From NCBI GenBank assembly GCA_001599295.1, contig BCGN01000002.1, forward strand, positions 1,612,001 to 1,676,000: a stretch of DNA of 64,000 nucleotides, read 5' to 3'. Of the stretch, positions 5,339 through 50,413 are shown piece by piece. The notes under the pieces are model-generated. The model was not told the DNA's origin. It made no database searches and saw only the letters and a list, made by a program, of their open reading frames with translations. Source of the stretch: Sporopachydermia quercuum. Lineage: Eukaryota. Position 1 is the stretch's first letter, and every line of letters begins with the position of its first letter. The translations under genes and the position numbers were made by a program.

Positions 5339-6105
5339 TTAAGCAATCAATTCGACAACACCACCAGCAGCCTTAATCTTTTCTTCAGCTAACTTGGAAA
5401 CAAATCTAGCCTTAACAATAACAGGAACTTGAGGTAATCTTCCTTTACCCAAAACCTTACCGTAGCCAGCAGCCAAAGTATCAATGACAGGGGCAGCTTC
5501 AGAAGAAGCAGCAGACAAGTACTTATCTCTGGATTCAGTAGGAACAAGAGTCCATAGTTTATCAAGGTTGATAACTGGTTTCCAAAAATGAGCTTGCTGC
5601 TTATGAAAGTATCTCATACCAACCTTACCAAAGTAACCAGGATGGTATTTATCCAAGTTAGTTCTGTGATGGTGTTGACCACCAGCCATACCTCTACCAC
5701 CAGGATTCTTTCTGTGCTTTCCGATACGACCGTAACCGGCTAGGAAAAGTTAGTGTACTATTCAAAAATAAGTTTAATGAAAACTGACAAACAATCTACA
5801 AAGCGGAGTCTCAAGCAATATATATTCATCTCCGTCTCAAGACGCCCATATGTTGTGCCGACATTTCTATGATCATACAATAAGATAAATTCTGATAAGT
5901 TGCAATTCAAACAATCTGATCAATCTCCAACTATTGTGAACAAACAATTCATCTAATGCAATTAAAAACTCCAAAGATCGTTATTGCTTCAATAGTAATA
6001 TACTTCTCACTCGTTATCTTGATTGCTTTGACATAAAACAAGAATCGTTAACATACCGGTTACGTGGCCTCTGTGTTTTCTTGTCTTTGTTAATCTGGTA
6101 GGCAT
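5339..6105 (-). CDS. RPL28: 60S ribosomal protein uL15 (L28/L27a); exons 6057-6105 and 5339-5739
   Basis: Spliced product [42 protein letters not shown]...; intron 5740-6056 GTATGT...CACTAAC...TAG, phase 1. Confidence 0.97.
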
Positions 6106-6889: not shown

Positions 6890-7584
6890 TTATATTTCCT
6901 GGTAACGTTGCATTAATAATCGCTTATACTCGGTTGGATTTTCATCCCAAAGTTGGGCAGCCCTTAATATTTGTAGTTAGTACAGTACTTTTTAGCCAGA
7001 AAATTACTTAACTGTATCAAAGCGCAATAACATACTGTGCGTTCAACGGACTACTGTTATTCGGTTCATTTAGTAGCGATTGCAATGAAAGTAAAATTGT
7101 TTGCACGTTATAAATTGCCGACCACTTTTCCTTGAGAATATCCAAACAGATATTTCCTGCCATGTCAACATTCGGGTGGTACATCGGAGAAACAAACTTG
7201 ATCGTTGGTGCAGCATATGGGTAGTTTTGGGGGAAAGTTAAGGAAATTTTGAATGTTAATCCTTCGTAGTACGTTCCTTCAGGACCAGCTATGGTTCCTG
7301 CCCATTGAAGCATGTCAGCGTCAGATTCAGGAAATGCACTAATACCTGGAGTTGTAGACATCTATTCAATTAATGCTGTTAGTATTACCCTCAGAGGAAC
7401 AGGAAATTGTTTAGAACGAGTGGCCTATTCCTTGACGTTGCAGAGACAAACTGATACTTACCATTAATTGTAAAAGCTCACTTTGTAATCTTTTTGTGAC
7501 AGAATGATTGTCAGTAGCTGGTGTTGAAGCACCTGAAAGCTTAGAACTATTAATCATAGCTGGATTGGCGTTTTGAGCATCCAT
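6890..7584 (-). CDS. UBC11: Ubiquitin-conjugating enzyme E2-C (UbcH10 type); exons 7462-7584, 7036-7361, 6890-6962
   Basis: [15 protein letters not shown] and [15 protein letters not shown] active-site motif; introns 7362-7461 (GTAAGT/TACTAAC/TAG) and 6963-7035 (GTATGT/TACTAAC/AAG) restore the C-terminus [19 protein letters not shown]. Confidence 0.93.
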
Positions 7585-28213: not shown

Positions 28214-28943
28214 TTTATTTTCAATGGCTATGTTCCGACTCTCTATATTTGCTGTCTCAGTGCTGAATAAGTCAGAACTTCAGTGACTATTGGCCATCTT
28301 GACTAACGATGTCGTTCTTCCGTCTATCTGTTGTGTGATGTAGATTCAATAATAGATTCCCTCAGTTTAATACAAAATAATCCAAAAAAAAACACTCCAA
28401 AATATTATTTTTTAGTATTTCTATTATATTAGTATTATATCTGAGAATCCTATTATAAAAGGAAGGTAATCAATCCAAATCTGGGGCAAGAACTACCTCA
28501 CTTACTATAAGTCTTAAAATTGACTTTATCGTGCAATTCGTTGAGTTAAATGAAGATCGAGCAGACAGTTGACTTTATAGATTAATTCATGGTTTGCACC
28601 ATATAAATACTCAGTAACAATAGAATTTGAGCCTCAAAAACTATATAATAATGAGAAGATATATAATAGTTCCTACCAATACTTTCTATGATATACTCTT
28701 TTGTCATCTTACAAACTCCAAGGTAATAGATACTTTTCTTTGCTTTACCTGGCATGATGGGTAATGAGACAAGATTCCCTTAATAGTTACCCTATTCCTT
28801 CACGTGCTATAAACAATGAATCATTTCATTGTCAGTACTTTACTGATTATGTAACCATAAATGAGTTGGTTGTAATGAGACCCTTATGATTCTGCCGTGG
28901 ATACACGGATGGAGTCTTGTTGAACACATTTATTGCGTAGAAA

Positions 28944-28951
28944 CAGTCACA
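28944..28951 (+). promoter_or_regulatory. Homol D box upstream of the snoRNA host gene
   Basis: Exact CAGTCACA about 300 bp upstream of the first donor; TCACGTG at 28800-28806; followed by a long pyrimidine-rich tract. Confidence 0.55.
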
Positions 28952-29299
28952 GAGACTGATTGTCCGAGACTTTTGGCGGACAGCTTGTTTGTTTCTTGAG
29001 ATTTTTTTATTGAAACTTTTTCACTTCTTGTTTGAGCTTTCCTTTTTGTTGGAATTTTCTTCCTTTCCTCTAACTTTCTTCTCACTGATAACTTTCGGAC
29101 CATTATTTTGTTATTGGTTTTTCAGGCTTGAGTAACAAGTGTTCATTCTTAGTTGGATGGGTCTTGAGTATGAATGGATGTCTTCCGTTAGTATAGACAT
29201 TATTCATCATCCGTAAGCGTAGAGAGATGGATGATATATAGTTCCTGATAAAAGGTAAGAATTGATTGATACTTTNATTTATAAATTGAAATTGATGAG

Positions 29300-29386
29300 T
29301 TTAAATGATGATTGAACAAAACAAAGCTGGAATTACTGGCAGAACTATAGTGTTGAGAACCTTTTGGTACCATACGCCGCTGAAAA
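29300..29386 (+). ncRNA. SNR77: Box C/D snoRNA snR77 (guide for 18S Um578, S. cerevisiae numbering)
   Basis: C box ATGATGA 29305-29311; guide AGCTGGAATTAC complementary to 18S GTAATTCCAGCT; D' CAGA 29340-29343 (fifth nucleotide pairs with U); D box CTGA 29380-29383. Confidence 0.9.
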
Positions 29387-29501
29387 CTAATCAATTTCAA
29401 ATGAATTAGCGAAGATAACTTACTAATTTTGTTTGAGAAAGTTGTGACTAACAATTGCATTAGGTATGGATCATTCTAGTTAAAAAATTTACTTTGTAGT
29501 G

Positions 29502-29587
29502 TTGAGATGAAGACTCTAAGCACTGGGCACCGATACATAATGAGTGATAATGCTTAGTGGGCCTAGAAAACCCACGTTACAGATCAA
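29502..29587 (+). ncRNA. SNR76: Box C/D snoRNA snR76 (guide for 25S Cm2197)
   Basis: C box ATGAAGA 29507-29513; guide AGCACTGGGCA complementary to 25S TGCCCAGTGCT; D' CCGA 29530-29533; D box CAGA 29580-29583; terminal TTGA/TCAA stem. Confidence 0.85.
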
Positions 29588-29748
29588 TTGCAATGGAACA
29601 ATAAATAATAGAATCAAGGTGAAAGTAACCACATTATAGAGCCAGAGATTAACCAATGTTTTAGATGAATGGAAATTGTTTTCTATATGATTGCTATTCT
29701 AAATTGTAAGTATACTGAGAAGTTCTTTCAACCCGCAAGCTTATTTAC

Positions 29749-29836
29749 CAAAGTGATGATATTCTTAGATGACGAGTCGGATGGGTTTCCTACTGACGAT
29801 AAAACTATTTAATTACCATTCATGCATTTCTGATAT
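29749..29836 (+). ncRNA. SNR75: Box C/D snoRNA snR75 (guide for 25S Gm2288)
   Basis: C box GTGATGA 29753-29759; guide TTAGATGACGAG complementary to 25S CTCGTCATCTAA; D' CGGA; second rRNA-complementary element CCATTCATGC; D box CTGA 29830-29833. Confidence 0.92.
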
Positions 29837-29987
29837 TTGTATTTTAATTTGCGAGTTCATTCTGAGTAATTTCAAGAAAAATCGTATTATTAGGAATCAA
29901 AGCTAACCAATAAATTTAGTGTAGAACATTTGTTTTCCAATGTATTGTTTTGGTATGGAATGCTTTAACTAAGCTTCGTTANATAGT

Positions 29988-30060
29988 CGCAGAAGATGAA
30001 CATTTTAAAATTTTGACAAGCATATGTCTGACTATTGATGAATTTTTTATGTCTGATGCG
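29988..30060 (+). ncRNA. SNR74: Box C/D snoRNA snR74 (guide for 18S Am28)
   Basis: Terminal stem CGCA/TGCG; degenerate C box AAGATGA; guide GACAAGCATATG complementary to 18S CATATGCTTGTC; D' CTGA 30028-30031; C' TTGATGA; D box CTGA 30053-30056. Confidence 0.92.
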
Positions 30061-30195
30061 TTTATTTGATGATACTACTAAATCGTTCTAGACCGGACTG
30101 AATTCCCACTTTACAAAGTTCCCTTAGGGAAGTAAATAAGGTAAGCTATTTCGAGAGTATATAAACCTCCATTTGAATATTGAGTAGCTTGTTAA

Positions 30196-30293
30196 ATCGC
30201 ATGATGATCTCTCCACAACTCACGACGGTCAACTGTGTCCGAAATACGGACGTTGATGATAATCAGCCTGTGACAAGGCGTGGAAACTGAATC
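30196..30293 (+). ncRNA. SNR73: Box C/D snoRNA snR73 (guide for 25S Cm2959)
   Basis: C box ATGATGA 30201-30207; guide CTCACGACGGTC complementary to 25S GACCGTCGTGAG; internal GTCCG/CGGAC hairpin; C' TTGATGA; GCCTGTGACA element; D box CTGA 30287-30290. Confidence 0.9.
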
Positions 30294-31108
30294 AAGTGAA
30301 GCCTTATTCATATGGAGTGTGCTTTATTGTATTAGTTTCATGCGTTACAATTTATTAACCATCCGTTAGTTTCCGATGTTCATAACAACATATAACTTCT
30401 GTATATAAATTATTCTACTTGGATTGTAGTCGCTGCCAACAGATATCAATTGTAAGGATTCTCCCATAGAGAATCGTTAGCTTTACTGTAAGGATGTTGA
30501 AACATTGAAGTATTATTTAACATTATATTTCATTCTATTTACGAAATCGCTTAAAAAAAGAAGCTCTGTCTCCCTTTCGACTATAGATTGACATATAGAT
30601 CAACTACTTAGTAATAACACTATTATTCTAACCTTCTCAGTAGTCTCTCCTTTCAGTAATGCATTACTTTATAAGAAGCCACAAATCTTTGAATCCAATA
30701 TCAATTGTCTTTTATAATCTCTATGCGCTACTAAAATCAGAGACAAACACTGCCTGCTCCTTTAATCTACTATCATCAAAATTAGTATCATGTTGCATGT
30801 TAAATTAAATAACTATTCATCCTGTTGCCTCACCTCCATTTCAGCCCTTCATATCTCAATTAGTTTATTTAAGATCTCCAGACACCCCCAATTAATGATT
30901 AGAAATCAACAAAAGAAAAAAAAAGACAACTTCACACTAAATGTGAATTGATTGATTGTAGATTTAAACAATCAGTTTACCTGATATGAAACAAGCAGTT
31001 GGGTTGCAAAAGAACAAATACAATCGCTTTGATTGCATTGTTATTACTTTCAGTAGGCCAGTAATCTGCGAATCATAGTTTCCAGGCTGATAAAACTCTA
31101 CACACACA

Positions 31109-31734
31109 ATGGATTTTGGTACTTCAGTAAGTCAGGATATTAATGCAATAGATATGTGATGTGATGTGATGTGATGGCATATATGTCATGAAATGGAATA
31201 CAGTGGTACCTATACTATTGATTTCTGGGGAACTACAAATTTAAGGATGTACTAACAATATTCAAATAGCTCTCAAGAATGTCATCTTACATTCAGAATA
31301 CGCCGTTTGCAAATATCAGACCAGTGTCTGAGTTTTTGGCACCCACAAGATTGTCAGTCCCATCATTCTTAGTTCTTCAAACTCGAATTCCCTATAATCT
31401 AGGTTATTTTTCATCTAACTATGCGATAATTNTCCTGTTATTGAGTCTTTATGCTCTNCTGACGAATTTATTGTTACTATTAGTACTGACTGTGGCTATT
31501 GTTGGTATTTATGGTATTTCATCTCTTCGTGGAGGTGACCTTACATTCTCAACTGTAAGAATTACAACTAACCAACTATATACAGCATTGTTGATTATCT
31601 GCACACCATTAATACTCATTGCAAGCCCCATTTCAACTTTACTATGGCTTGCTGGAACATCAGCTGTGATAATTTTATTTCATGCAGCATTGCTCGATCG
31701 ACCTGCTCAAACCGCGTTTGCTGATGTTGTTTGA
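31109..31734 (+). CDS. YIP3: PRA1-family Rab-interacting membrane protein; exons 31109-31126 and 31270-31734
   Basis: RPVSEFL, RIPYNLGYFSSNY and LFHAALL PRA1 motifs; intron 31127-31269 GTAAGT/TACTAAC/TAG keeps frame. Confidence 0.9.
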
Positions 31735-31888: not shown

Positions 31889-32605
31889 TCATACGTCTGT
31901 TGATCTTTTAGAATTACACGCGACAATCTTAACCATATCAGCATGAACTTTGTCACCATTGTCTAATTTGAAATCAGCATTCTCCACCAAAAAAATCCAA
32001 ACGTCGTCGCAAAATCTATATGTATGTAAATGTGCCTTAGCTCTCGGTTAGCACATTATTTATTTCCAAGAAACTCTCCGAGATTCCTCCGAACCACCAA
32101 CAATCACATACCTTGAAAGAAAGCTTCGATTTCACCCTTTCACGAAGGGAGTCGGTTACAGCCTTGTCGAACTGTCCTAAGTTAGTANCATCATTCTTCT
32201 ATAGCAGAGCAACATATCAGGGTAAGCATAAACAGAAGTAGAAAATGACCTTAGCCAATACCTGAACATACATTGTGAAGAACCTTCATGGCCAACTGGG
32301 GAGGAATCCTCTCATCCCTGTTCATACTTGTTAGCAAAATGTTCCACCATATACTCTAAAGCTTTCCTACATAACTAACTATCTATCCCAAAGGAAATAA
32401 ACCATACATGATCAAACTATCCAAGGCATCGGTGAGAGCTGTTCCAACACTAGATTTAAAGGTTAATAAGTGCACTCAGCATGACGCACAATTGACTCAT
32501 GACAATTCTGCTCGTAAGCTGCTATCTCTAATTCTTCACATACGTGCTCATACGATACAACTCATAGTTACCAGAACTATTGACTGCTGATAAAGCTTCT
32601 GCCAT
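31889..32605 (-). CDS. TOA2: Transcription factor IIA small (gamma) subunit; exons 32544-32605, 32408-32449, 32272-32317, 32112-32171, 31889-32035 (absent from ORF track)
   Basis: Spliced 118-aa product ...[74 protein letters not shown]...KIVACNSKR; all four introns have GT..branch..AG and phases are consistent. Confidence 0.96.
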
Positions 32606-35756: not shown

Positions 35757-37227
35757 TTAATTACCATCCCCATTAGAATAGGAAATTACTGCCCATTTGC
35801 CAGACCAAACCCATCCTTCTTTGGGCTCTTTACCCATAGCCAAATATTCTTGTTCCAGCTCTTTATCTTGACCTTTTCTTAGATTGACGCATACATCAGC
35901 CTTACAAGTTCGTAAAGCAAGAACTTTCACACCTGAAGTTGCCAATTCTTGAATAGCATCAATAAATGATGTCTCTCTTGGCCACATACAATCGCCAGTC
36001 AATTTTCTATAGTTTAAGTCACCTTTAAAAATAACTAAATTAGAATTGATCAANTCTTTCCAAACATCAGCACCTCCATTCAACCCATGTTCATTGATTT
36101 GCCAGTACGTTTCAAAACTAGTCCAGAAAGGATCAGATCTCTCTTCAATTTGCCCAGCTTCAATATAAGATGTAATCTTTTCAGCTAAAAAGCCCAATTC
36201 TTCTCTATGTTCAGGGAAAAAATCCGCGTCTTTTAAATCAGCAACTAAAGCTTTAAAGTCCCAAGGTGTTACGTCAGAAACCATCCAAGGGATATTCTTA
36301 GTATGAAATACAGCCTTGGAGATTAACTTTGAATCAAGCAAATAGAGAGTTAAGATCATATCAGTGTAAAGTTCAAATCCTGAATTGTCCAAAACAAAGT
36401 CAACTCTTTTATTAGCAACTGAGCTGTCAGAAATGATACTCCATGCTTTGTTTGTATCGTTAACAATTATCTTGCTCTCACTCTTTTTCCTTGCCTCAGC
36501 TCCTTGAACTGATTTTATATCATCTAAAGTAGCATTAGCAAGTAATGATAAATCAGTAGCATTGCCCCAGAGTGATACTTCGATGAATTCTTTAAACAAT
36601 AACTTCAAAGTTTCTTCATCAACCTTCTTGGAACCACCACCAGCTAACTCTTTAGAAAGGTTTTTATATCTAACAGCTAATTCACCAACCCCAAAAGCAG
36701 ATGATTTGTAAGTATTTTCTTTCAAATTGAAGAAAACATCGTACTCCTTCCAGAACTCAGAGTGATAAAAAATCTGGTTGATCTTTCTGTAGAATATACA
36801 TTCACTGAAAAGCCATGGTGCGTTCAACCAAGTAATCTCTTTTCCAATTGCTTTCAATGCATCATCATAATTCTTCAATCCCTCAATTTCGTCATCATCG
36901 AAAGGAGTAATTACATCTCCATTAGCAATTGCAGTTTTTAAAGCTGTCAGTTTCTCACTCACTTTCTGTCCGTCAATTTTCTTATCACTTTCAGTATCAG
37001 GTAATGCAGGATAAGTTTCTGTGATATCAGTAATAGTATTGGTGATAATGGCTAACCATCTAATTCTTGCAGTTGTCCAACCAAATGAATTGGGATCATC
37101 ATTCATATAAGGAGAAGGAGGAGTTGCTATTGGTTGATTCGTTAGTCCAAATATTTAGATACAAGTATCAACAGTTTGTTTATTCCAGATTTGTAGAATA
37201 ATAGTCTAACTACTTACGAGGAGTCAT
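35757..37227 (-). CDS. DUF89/ARMT1-family damage-control phosphatase (YMR027W-like); exons 37218-37227 and 35757-37126
   Basis: SLWGNATDLS, VLDNSGFEL, IFKGDLNYRKL and LRTCKAD motifs; intron 37127-37217 GTAAGT/GACTAAC/TAG. Confidence 0.93.
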
Positions 37228-47732: not shown

Positions 47733-47826
47733 TGCTTCGTGGGAGGATCGAACTCTCGACCTTCAGATCACACAGCTAAGTTTATACAGTATGAGACTGA
47801 CGCTCTACCGACTGAGCCAACGAAGC
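47733..47826 (-). tRNA. Elongator tRNA-Met(CAT) with a 21-nt intron (47769-47789)
   Basis: GCTTCGT/ACGAAGC acceptor stem (G1:C72), TGGCTCAGTCGG A box, GTTCGATCC B box, anticodon CAT at 47791-47793, intron after base 37, T7 terminator. Confidence 0.97.
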
Positions 47827-49822: not shown

Positions 49823-50413
49823 ATGGTATGTTCTTGACATGGGTGATGAATCGACGAGATAAAAGATACGTTGACTTTGNCGAAACTAATACTAACCGGA
49901 TGATTAAAGTCTTCTAACAATGGGATTCAAATGCTTCTCGATGTATGTTGATACTCTTTGTGAATTGATTAAGTGATTCTTGGTACGGTTGCAGGGCAAC
50001 TCAGATTTTCTAACATCTCTACTCAGGCCGAAAGGAAGGCACTAGAGATTGTTGCGGAAGCAAGAGCTTGTAAGTAGACTTTGCTGTGATAAACAATATA
50101 TATATGTGGTATATGTTGTGAATAACAGTTCACTAACAGAATAGATCGTGCACAAAAGTTGAAGGCCTCAAAGGCTGATGCCGCTAAGGAAATCGAGACA
50201 TACAAAGCAAAGAAGGATGAAGAACTTAAAAAATATGAAGCAAAGCATAGTGGTTCTAATGTGGAATTAGAGAAAAATGCAGAAGAAACAATCAAGAAAA
50301 GCGTTGAGGAAACTAAGAAGCTTGCAGTTACTCATAAAAATGAAGTCGTCAAGATGTTATTAGATGCTGTGATCAAACCTGAACCAGCTCTTCATACAAA
50401 TGCTTCTTTCTAA
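49823..50413 (+). CDS. VMA10: V-ATPase V1 subunit G; exons 49823-49825, 49910-49942, 50027-50069, 50145-50413
   Basis: Spliced 115-aa product MSSNNGIQMLLDAERKALEIVAEARAYRAQKLKASKADAAKEIETYK...; three introns with consistent phases; first exon is ATG only. Confidence 0.95.

Follow-up and report, generated by a model that had tools for sequence, protein, structure and literature searches.

Two snoRNA introns that abut at a predicted zero-length exon in a cluster I-type host gene of Sporopachydermia quercuum

Exon-less introns, also called complex or juxtaposed introns, have been described in fungal snoRNA clusters I–III (Luo et al. 2013, PLoS One, PMC3596301). EST and RT-PCR products reported there agree with stepwise 5′-to-3′ removal or with one donor picking among acceptors. 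The same paper attributes the findings in the Candida clade and Yarrowia to Mitrovich et al. (2010, Science), and it treats exon loss as widespread and not as a stage on the route to the Saccharomyces polycistron, which by its account arose by splice-site degeneration. Recursive (exon size zero), nested (negative exon size), and 1-nt-exon splicing have been reported with RNA-seq support in snoRNA clusters of the Candida parapsilosis group (Donovan et al. 2016, PLoS One, PMC5033589). Exon skipping is reported in cluster I of N. crassa (Liu 2009, PMC2780460). In S. cerevisiae, RNase III (Rnt1) cleaves the SNR72-78 polycistron, with trimming by Rat1/Xrn1 (Qu et al. 1999, cited in PMC5033589).

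The window analyzed here is a stretch of 64,000 nucleotides of Sporopachydermia quercuum (contig BCGN01000002.1, positions 1,612,001–1,676,000, forward strand), and positions are counted from its first letter. Five C/D box snoRNAs lie on the plus strand, one in each predicted intron (Table 1), and four of the five score above the Rfam gathering score. Internal exons in the host-gene model are 0, 41, 33, and 49 nt long, and the longest open reading frame of the spliced model is 24 aa. Because each snoRNA is surrounded by a donor, branch site, and acceptor and no longer reading frame is present, the locus is, as judged from these signals, a non-coding snoRNA host of the fungal cluster I type (snR77-76-75-74-73) in which each intron contains a single snoRNA. 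The D box of snR76 (29580–29583, +) reads CAGA where the Rfam consensus is CUGA; the remainder of the gene, with both conserved guide-like elements, matches well. Rfam searches of both flanks of the host gene gave no snR78 or snR72 match at E values up to 10. Upstream of the host gene, at 28740–28960 (+), two stretches carry C-box-like and CTGA motifs and have no Rfam match at E values up to 10; the second is followed by a small GC hairpin (about 28962–28984).

Table 1. Features of the snoRNA host gene and of the junction between its first two introns
Feature	Position (strand)	Length (nt)	Signals and support
Intron 1, snR77	29255–29463 (+)	209	Predicted from signals; donor GTAAGA after exon end AAG, GACTAAC, TAG at +12
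snR77 C/D box snoRNA	29301–29385 (+)		Rfam RF01181, 57.8 bits (gathering score 50); C box ATGATGA, D box CTGA at 29380–29383
Local hairpin, predicted	29395–29438 (+)		Covers upstream TACTAAT and GAG
Alternative or relic branch site TACTAAT	29421–29427 (+)		Branch A 29426
Alternative acceptor AAG	29439–29441 (+)		+15 from A29426; use would give exon 29442–29463, 22 nt
Branch site of intron 1, GACTAAC	29446–29452 (+)		Branch A 29451; 68 nt after snR77 D box
Acceptor of intron 1, TAG	29461–29463 (+)		12 nt past branch A 29451
Donor of intron 2, GTATGG	29464–29469 (+)		Abuts TAG acceptor; same hexamer also at 29953 in host gene
Intron 2, snR76	29464–29664 (+)	201	Predicted; GTATGG, GATTAAC 29647–29653 (branch A 29652), +12, TAG 29662–29664
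snR76 C/D box snoRNA	29502–29587 (+)		Rfam RF01209, 78.5 bits (gathering score 55)
Internal exon	29665–29705 (+)	41	Predicted
Intron 3, snR75	29706–29919 (+)	214	Predicted; GTAAGT, AGCTAAC, TAG at +13
snR75	29751–29835 (+)		Rfam, above gathering score
Internal exon	29920–29952 (+)	33	Predicted
Intron 4, snR74-like	29953–30091 (+)	139	Predicted; GTATGG, TACTAAA, TAG at +10
snR74/SNORD27-like snoRNA	29988–30060 (+)		Rfam, 49.4 bits, just under gathering score 52
Internal exon	30092–30140 (+)	49	Predicted
Intron 5, snR73	30141–30369 (+)	229	Predicted; GTAAGC, TATTAAC, TAG at +11
snR73	30191–30292 (+)		Rfam, above gathering score

The locus resembles the clusters of Luo et al. (2013) in having a non-coding host, one C/D snoRNA per intron, and internal exons that are tiny or absent, and cluster I (snR78-72) was included in that survey. 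It differs in that the experiments reported there were made on clusters II and III (D. hansenii, Y. lipolytica, and Euascomycetes), and S. quercuum is outside the species set of that paper. The S. quercuum NUAM protein has at most 73% identity among the matches listed, with 70–72% to named Babjeviella, Geotrichum, Scheffersomyces, and Lodderomyces hits. On this protein comparison, S. quercuum appears not to be close to any species of that set and to be without a close named relative.

Between snR77 and snR76, the bases GACTAAC are followed by eight bases (AATTGCAT), then TAG, and directly by GTATGG, which places an AG|GT junction at 29463|29464. The first-pass annotation had described this zero-nucleotide junction, and its coordinates were found correct when the sequence was re-read, as were the positions it gave for an upstream TACTAAT and AAG. 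Its main reading, two complete intron modules meeting at AG|GT, agrees with the anatomy. The assembly is of draft quality, with 56 N calls in the window, yet the junction bases are unambiguous; a single N at 29277 is inside intron 1, away from the junction, and another lies at 29982 in intron 4.

From intron 1 to intron 5, the distance from donor to C box is 50, 43, 49, 41, and 60 nt, from the end of the D box (29383 for snR77) to the branch A 68, 69, 73, 25, and 68 nt, and from the branch A to the acceptor G 12, 12, 13, 10, and 11 nt; the predicted acceptor is TAG in all five. The claim that the spacing of intron 1 matches that of its sister introns holds for the snR76 (69/12), snR75 (73/13), and snR73 (68/11) introns and fails for the snR74 intron (25/10, with TACTAAA). 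The donor-to-C-box distances fall in the 41–60 nt range given for N. crassa intronic snoRNAs (Liu 2009, PMC2780460). A rule for the spacing from snoRNA to branch point is not stated in the reviews searched, and Liu (2009, PMC2780460) offers only a general statement.

A zero-length internal exon, with the two introns leaving as separate lariats by stepwise (recursive) splicing, is the preferred reading and is considered probable. The introns would follow a common plan of about 200 nt consisting of a donor, 41–60 nt, C box to D box, about 68–73 nt, a YTAAC branch site, 11–13 nt, and TAG. TAG|GTATGG would double as acceptor of the snR77 intron and donor of the snR76 intron. Intron 1 would be removed first through branch A29451, probably co-transcriptionally, and exon 1, which ends in AAG, would be joined to GTATGG. 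By sequence logic, this step turns TAG|GTATGG into AAG|GTATGG and would thus regenerate an AG|GTATGG donor, which would be used in a second step with branch A29652 and the acceptor at 29664. The products would be two separate lariats. After debranching, each could be trimmed to its snoRNP by exonucleases, so no endonuclease would be needed. The reverse order would also be workable on paper, because removal of intron 2 keeps the TAG acceptor intact.

Signals of the same kind occur in protein-coding genes of the window. A TFIIA-gamma (TOA2-like) gene at 31889–32605 (−) has four short introns and exons of 62, 42, 46, 60, and at least 144 nt. Spliced by coordinates, it yields a 118-aa product that aligns without gaps over all four junctions with P0001 (69% over 97 aa) and P0004 (52% over 108 aa). 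The last exon matches positions 2–43 of the 43-position Pfam profile TFIIA_gamma_C from its first residue, and it also matches solved TFIIA small subunits. Intron 2 of this gene has the donor GTATGG, with gapless alignment over the junction, and GTATGG is on this alignment a working donor for the species. In intron 4 the acceptor is an AAG lying 12 nt past the branch A of TGCTAAC, and the frame is broken if the TAG at +32 is taken instead. Given four introns in this gene and the AAG at intron 4, the genome is intron-rich for a budding yeast and tolerant of AAG acceptors.

Ten protein-coding introns were reconstructed, four from TFIIA-gamma, two from a VMA10-like gene, and one each from PRA1-, ARMT1-, UBC-, and RPL28-like genes. 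All ten have a YTAAC branch site 8–17 nt from the acceptor, and one, in the ARMT1-like gene, is GACTAAC. The sample was obtained by a YTAAC scan and is unbiased only for the extra introns of multi-intron genes; a broad ORF-rescue intron finder gave output too noisy for use. At the junction, GACTAAC lies at a distance from the acceptor G (12 nt) that is typical of the species. The sequence anatomy, the snoRNA identities, and the genome's use of GTATGG donors and YTAAC branch sites are established here; from these it is inferred that the 29463|29464 site is used and in which order the two steps occur.

The same genes bear on a second reading of intron 1. In it, TACTAAT (branch A29426) would be used with the AAG ending at 29441, or with a GAG ending at 29437, to give a 22-nt or 26-nt exon ending in TAG, and GACTAAC/TAG would be unused or would serve a minor isoform. 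TACTAAT matches the yeast heptamer at six of seven positions and is followed by a U-rich stretch, and a U-rich stretch after a branch site favors its use. The checked introns take the first AG at +8 or beyond from the branch A, and an AAG is the acceptor in TFIIA-gamma intron 4 and probably, at +14, in VMA10-like intron 1, where the homology is presumed. From this first-AG pattern and the use of AAG in the genome, the AAG (+15) or GAG (+11) would be the expected acceptor if TACTAAT were bound. The snR74 intron appears to use TACTAAA and has no other candidate, so branch sites without a final C may work in S. quercuum. Against a 22-nt exon, the branch site ends in C in all ten reconstructed coding introns and the predicted acceptor is TAG throughout the host gene. 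The distance from the D box to A29426 would be 43 nt, compared with 68–73 nt in four of the five introns. The alternatives named in the first-pass annotation were well chosen, but it made too little of this one, which is more live than implied because AAG acceptors are used in the genome. Overall, a 22-nt exon is judged unlikely, though worth keeping in view.

Folding also separates the two branch sites. Mean unpaired probability in three folding contexts was 0.70–0.71 for GACTAAC, and TACTAAT (0.19–0.20) and GAG (0.03–0.04) were predicted to be paired, which counts against the 22-nt exon. The hairpin responsible has a z score of −3.57 on 48 nt whose ends were hand-picked after the fold was seen. 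An unbiased 60-nt spacer containing it gave z −1.67, and 9 of 200 shuffles were as good. No significant hairpin was found by shuffle test in the D-box-to-branch spacers of the sister introns, so the hairpin of intron 1 does not belong to a design common to these introns.

Chance estimates were made for the junction. The motif TAAC-N5-15-YAG|GTAWG has one match in the window, with 0.38 expected over both strands, and at least one match appeared in 31 of 100 shuffles; the motif alone is therefore weak evidence. The module YTAAC-N5-8-YAG was counted 35 times in 128 kb, or 2.7e-4 per base, and this rate gives the probability that one ends at the base just before a given donor. In the window, YTAAC-N5-8-YAG|GT has three sites, and a donor-like hexamer follows only at 29464. 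A chance artefact was rejected as an explanation of the junction on this module rate and on that single donor-like follow-up among the three sites. If a 22-nt exon were used and the YTAAC-N8-TAG module were without function, it would end exactly at the donor with a probability of about 3e-4. For a 60-nt spacer, the probability of a decoy TACTAA[AT] is about 0.013, and that of CTAAT about 0.08. From these rates, selection on GACTAAC/TAG appears to be favored roughly tenfold to hundredfold over its chance presence in a 22-nt exon.

Both sets of signals could also be accommodated by acceptor migration. A new branch site and TAG would have arisen within a former 22-nt exon, so that the zero exon would not stem from deletion. 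The old TACTAAT/AAG would persist upstream, masked by the hairpin, and both 0-nt and 22-nt isoforms would be made. This history is tentative and rather doubtful. If true, it would be a case of exon death by intronization caught in progress, and the locus would be a compact natural system for asking whether the yeast spliceosome recognizes a donor without a preceding exon.

A different outcome would follow if the AG|GT were skipped. One 410-nt intron (29255–29664, branch A29652) would then contain both snoRNAs, and either an endonuclease would have to part them or their processing would be inefficient. Two snoRNAs on one debranched lariat cannot be freed from each other by exonucleases that trim its ends, which counts against this arrangement. 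Each of the internal signals (branch site, acceptor, and donor) is moreover intact, and they stand in register. Folding of the snR77-snR76 spacer gave no stem of the RNase III (Rnt1) type with an AGNN cap (z 0.05, no better than shuffles), whereas such a stem is present in the same spacer of two Saccharomyces-type loci from metagenomes, capped by AGUA in L001 (z −2.68) and by AGUU in L004. In favor of skipping, a minor pattern of skipped short internal exons is reported for cluster I in both C. parapsilosis and N. crassa (PMC5033589, PMC2780460), and the results reported by Luo et al. (PMC3596301) are also compatible with one donor choosing any of several acceptors. A dicistronic intron is regarded as improbable.

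These metagenome loci came from a scan with a pattern of the snR76 C′ box and guide, which returned six loci (L001–L006). L001, L004, and L005 are Saccharomyces-type unspliced clusters, L002 and L006 are lone snR76-like genes below the gathering score, and L003 has no Rfam match at E 0.1 or better. A scan of genome contigs with an snR77 pattern gave five loci, which were rejected as chance matches in bacterial coding sequence with no Rfam hits.

The three unspliced clusters have the same snoRNAs in the same order as S. quercuum, and their arrangement raises the reading that the S. quercuum locus is itself an unspliced polycistron whose splice-like motifs are relics. The related loci, however, lack splice signals and have AGNN-capped spacer stems (L001 and L004), and S. 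quercuum is the reverse; the combination that marks an Rnt1-processed Saccharomyces-type polycistron, an AGNN stem without splice signals, is thus not what is found here. Beyond the missing stem, five donor, branch-site, and TAG sets stand in regular register about the five snoRNAs, and the genome is intron-rich with the same signals in its coding genes. An unspliced transcript is accordingly considered very improbable, and stepwise removal of two abutting introns is retained as the preferred reading.

In metazoan ratchet-point recursive splicing, for example in Drosophila Ubx, a combined AG|GT regenerates a donor after the first step. Such introns are tens of kilobases long, and their subdivision is thought to serve fidelity or kinetics. 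In S. quercuum the two introns together measure 410 nt, and their separation is likely to serve to keep one snoRNA per lariat. As read here, the junction works like a ratchet point and falls outside the metazoan class, which is defined by very long introns.

The fungal comparison is closer. As in the clusters of Donovan et al. (2016), an acceptor abuts the next donor (or, in some of theirs, overlaps it), and removal of one intron regenerates the signal of its neighbor. That account places the zero, 1-nt, and negative exons in clusters II and III and describes the introns of cluster I as spliced one by one between real exons; at the S. quercuum junction the exon has a length of exactly zero, acceptor and donor share no bases, and on paper the introns could be removed in either order. 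The first-pass annotation had presented the mechanism as mainly known from long metazoan introns. This overstates its novelty, since stepwise splicing of juxtaposed snoRNA introns is in print for fungi (PMC3596301, PMC5033589), and what was proposed is therefore a mechanism already published for this family of genes, with no transfer from metazoan introns needed. The further suggestion that the junction lies on the way to a polycistron finds no support, given the derivation by splice-site degeneration in Luo et al. (2013, PMC3596301). A zero exon between snR77 and snR76 of another yeast may already be included in Figure 1 or Table S3 of that paper or in Mitrovich et al. (2010).

Because the same arrangement has been described in the same kind of gene in other fungi, the S. 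quercuum junction is a real but fairly ordinary example, and its mechanism is not new. It adds one example of abutting snoRNA introns, in cluster I and in a poorly sampled budding-yeast lineage. It also lends support to the view, already in print, that a non-coding snoRNA host can lose internal exons wholly while each snoRNA keeps its own lariat. With its small size (410 nt) and its competing upstream branch site and acceptor, the locus could be a simple system in which to study how a branch site is chosen and in what order recursive splicing proceeds.

Elsewhere in the host gene, the snR74 intron (29953–30141, +) is without YTAAC and has only TACTAAA, 25 nt past the D box, with TAG at +10. 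If TACTAAA is non-functional, snR74 and snR73 would share a single 417-nt intron (29953–30369). A pair of motifs resembling a C box and a D box, TGATGA and CTGA (about 30067–30100), spans the snR74 acceptor and the 49-nt exon.

Further introns were observed in the window. RPL28-like (5740–6105, −), UBC-like (7362–7461, −), PRA1-like (31127–31269, +), and ARMT1-like (37127–37217, −) genes have one intron each, with CACTAAC, TACTAAC, or GACTAAC as branch site 10–17 nt from TAG. A VMA10-like gene (V-ATPase subunit G; 49823–50400, +) probably has three. Its first coding exon, which on presumed N-terminal homology is probably ATG alone (49823–49825), is followed by GTATGT and by TACTAAC with AAG at +14. 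A tRNA gene at 47733–47826 (−) is 94 nt long and therefore probably contains an intron.
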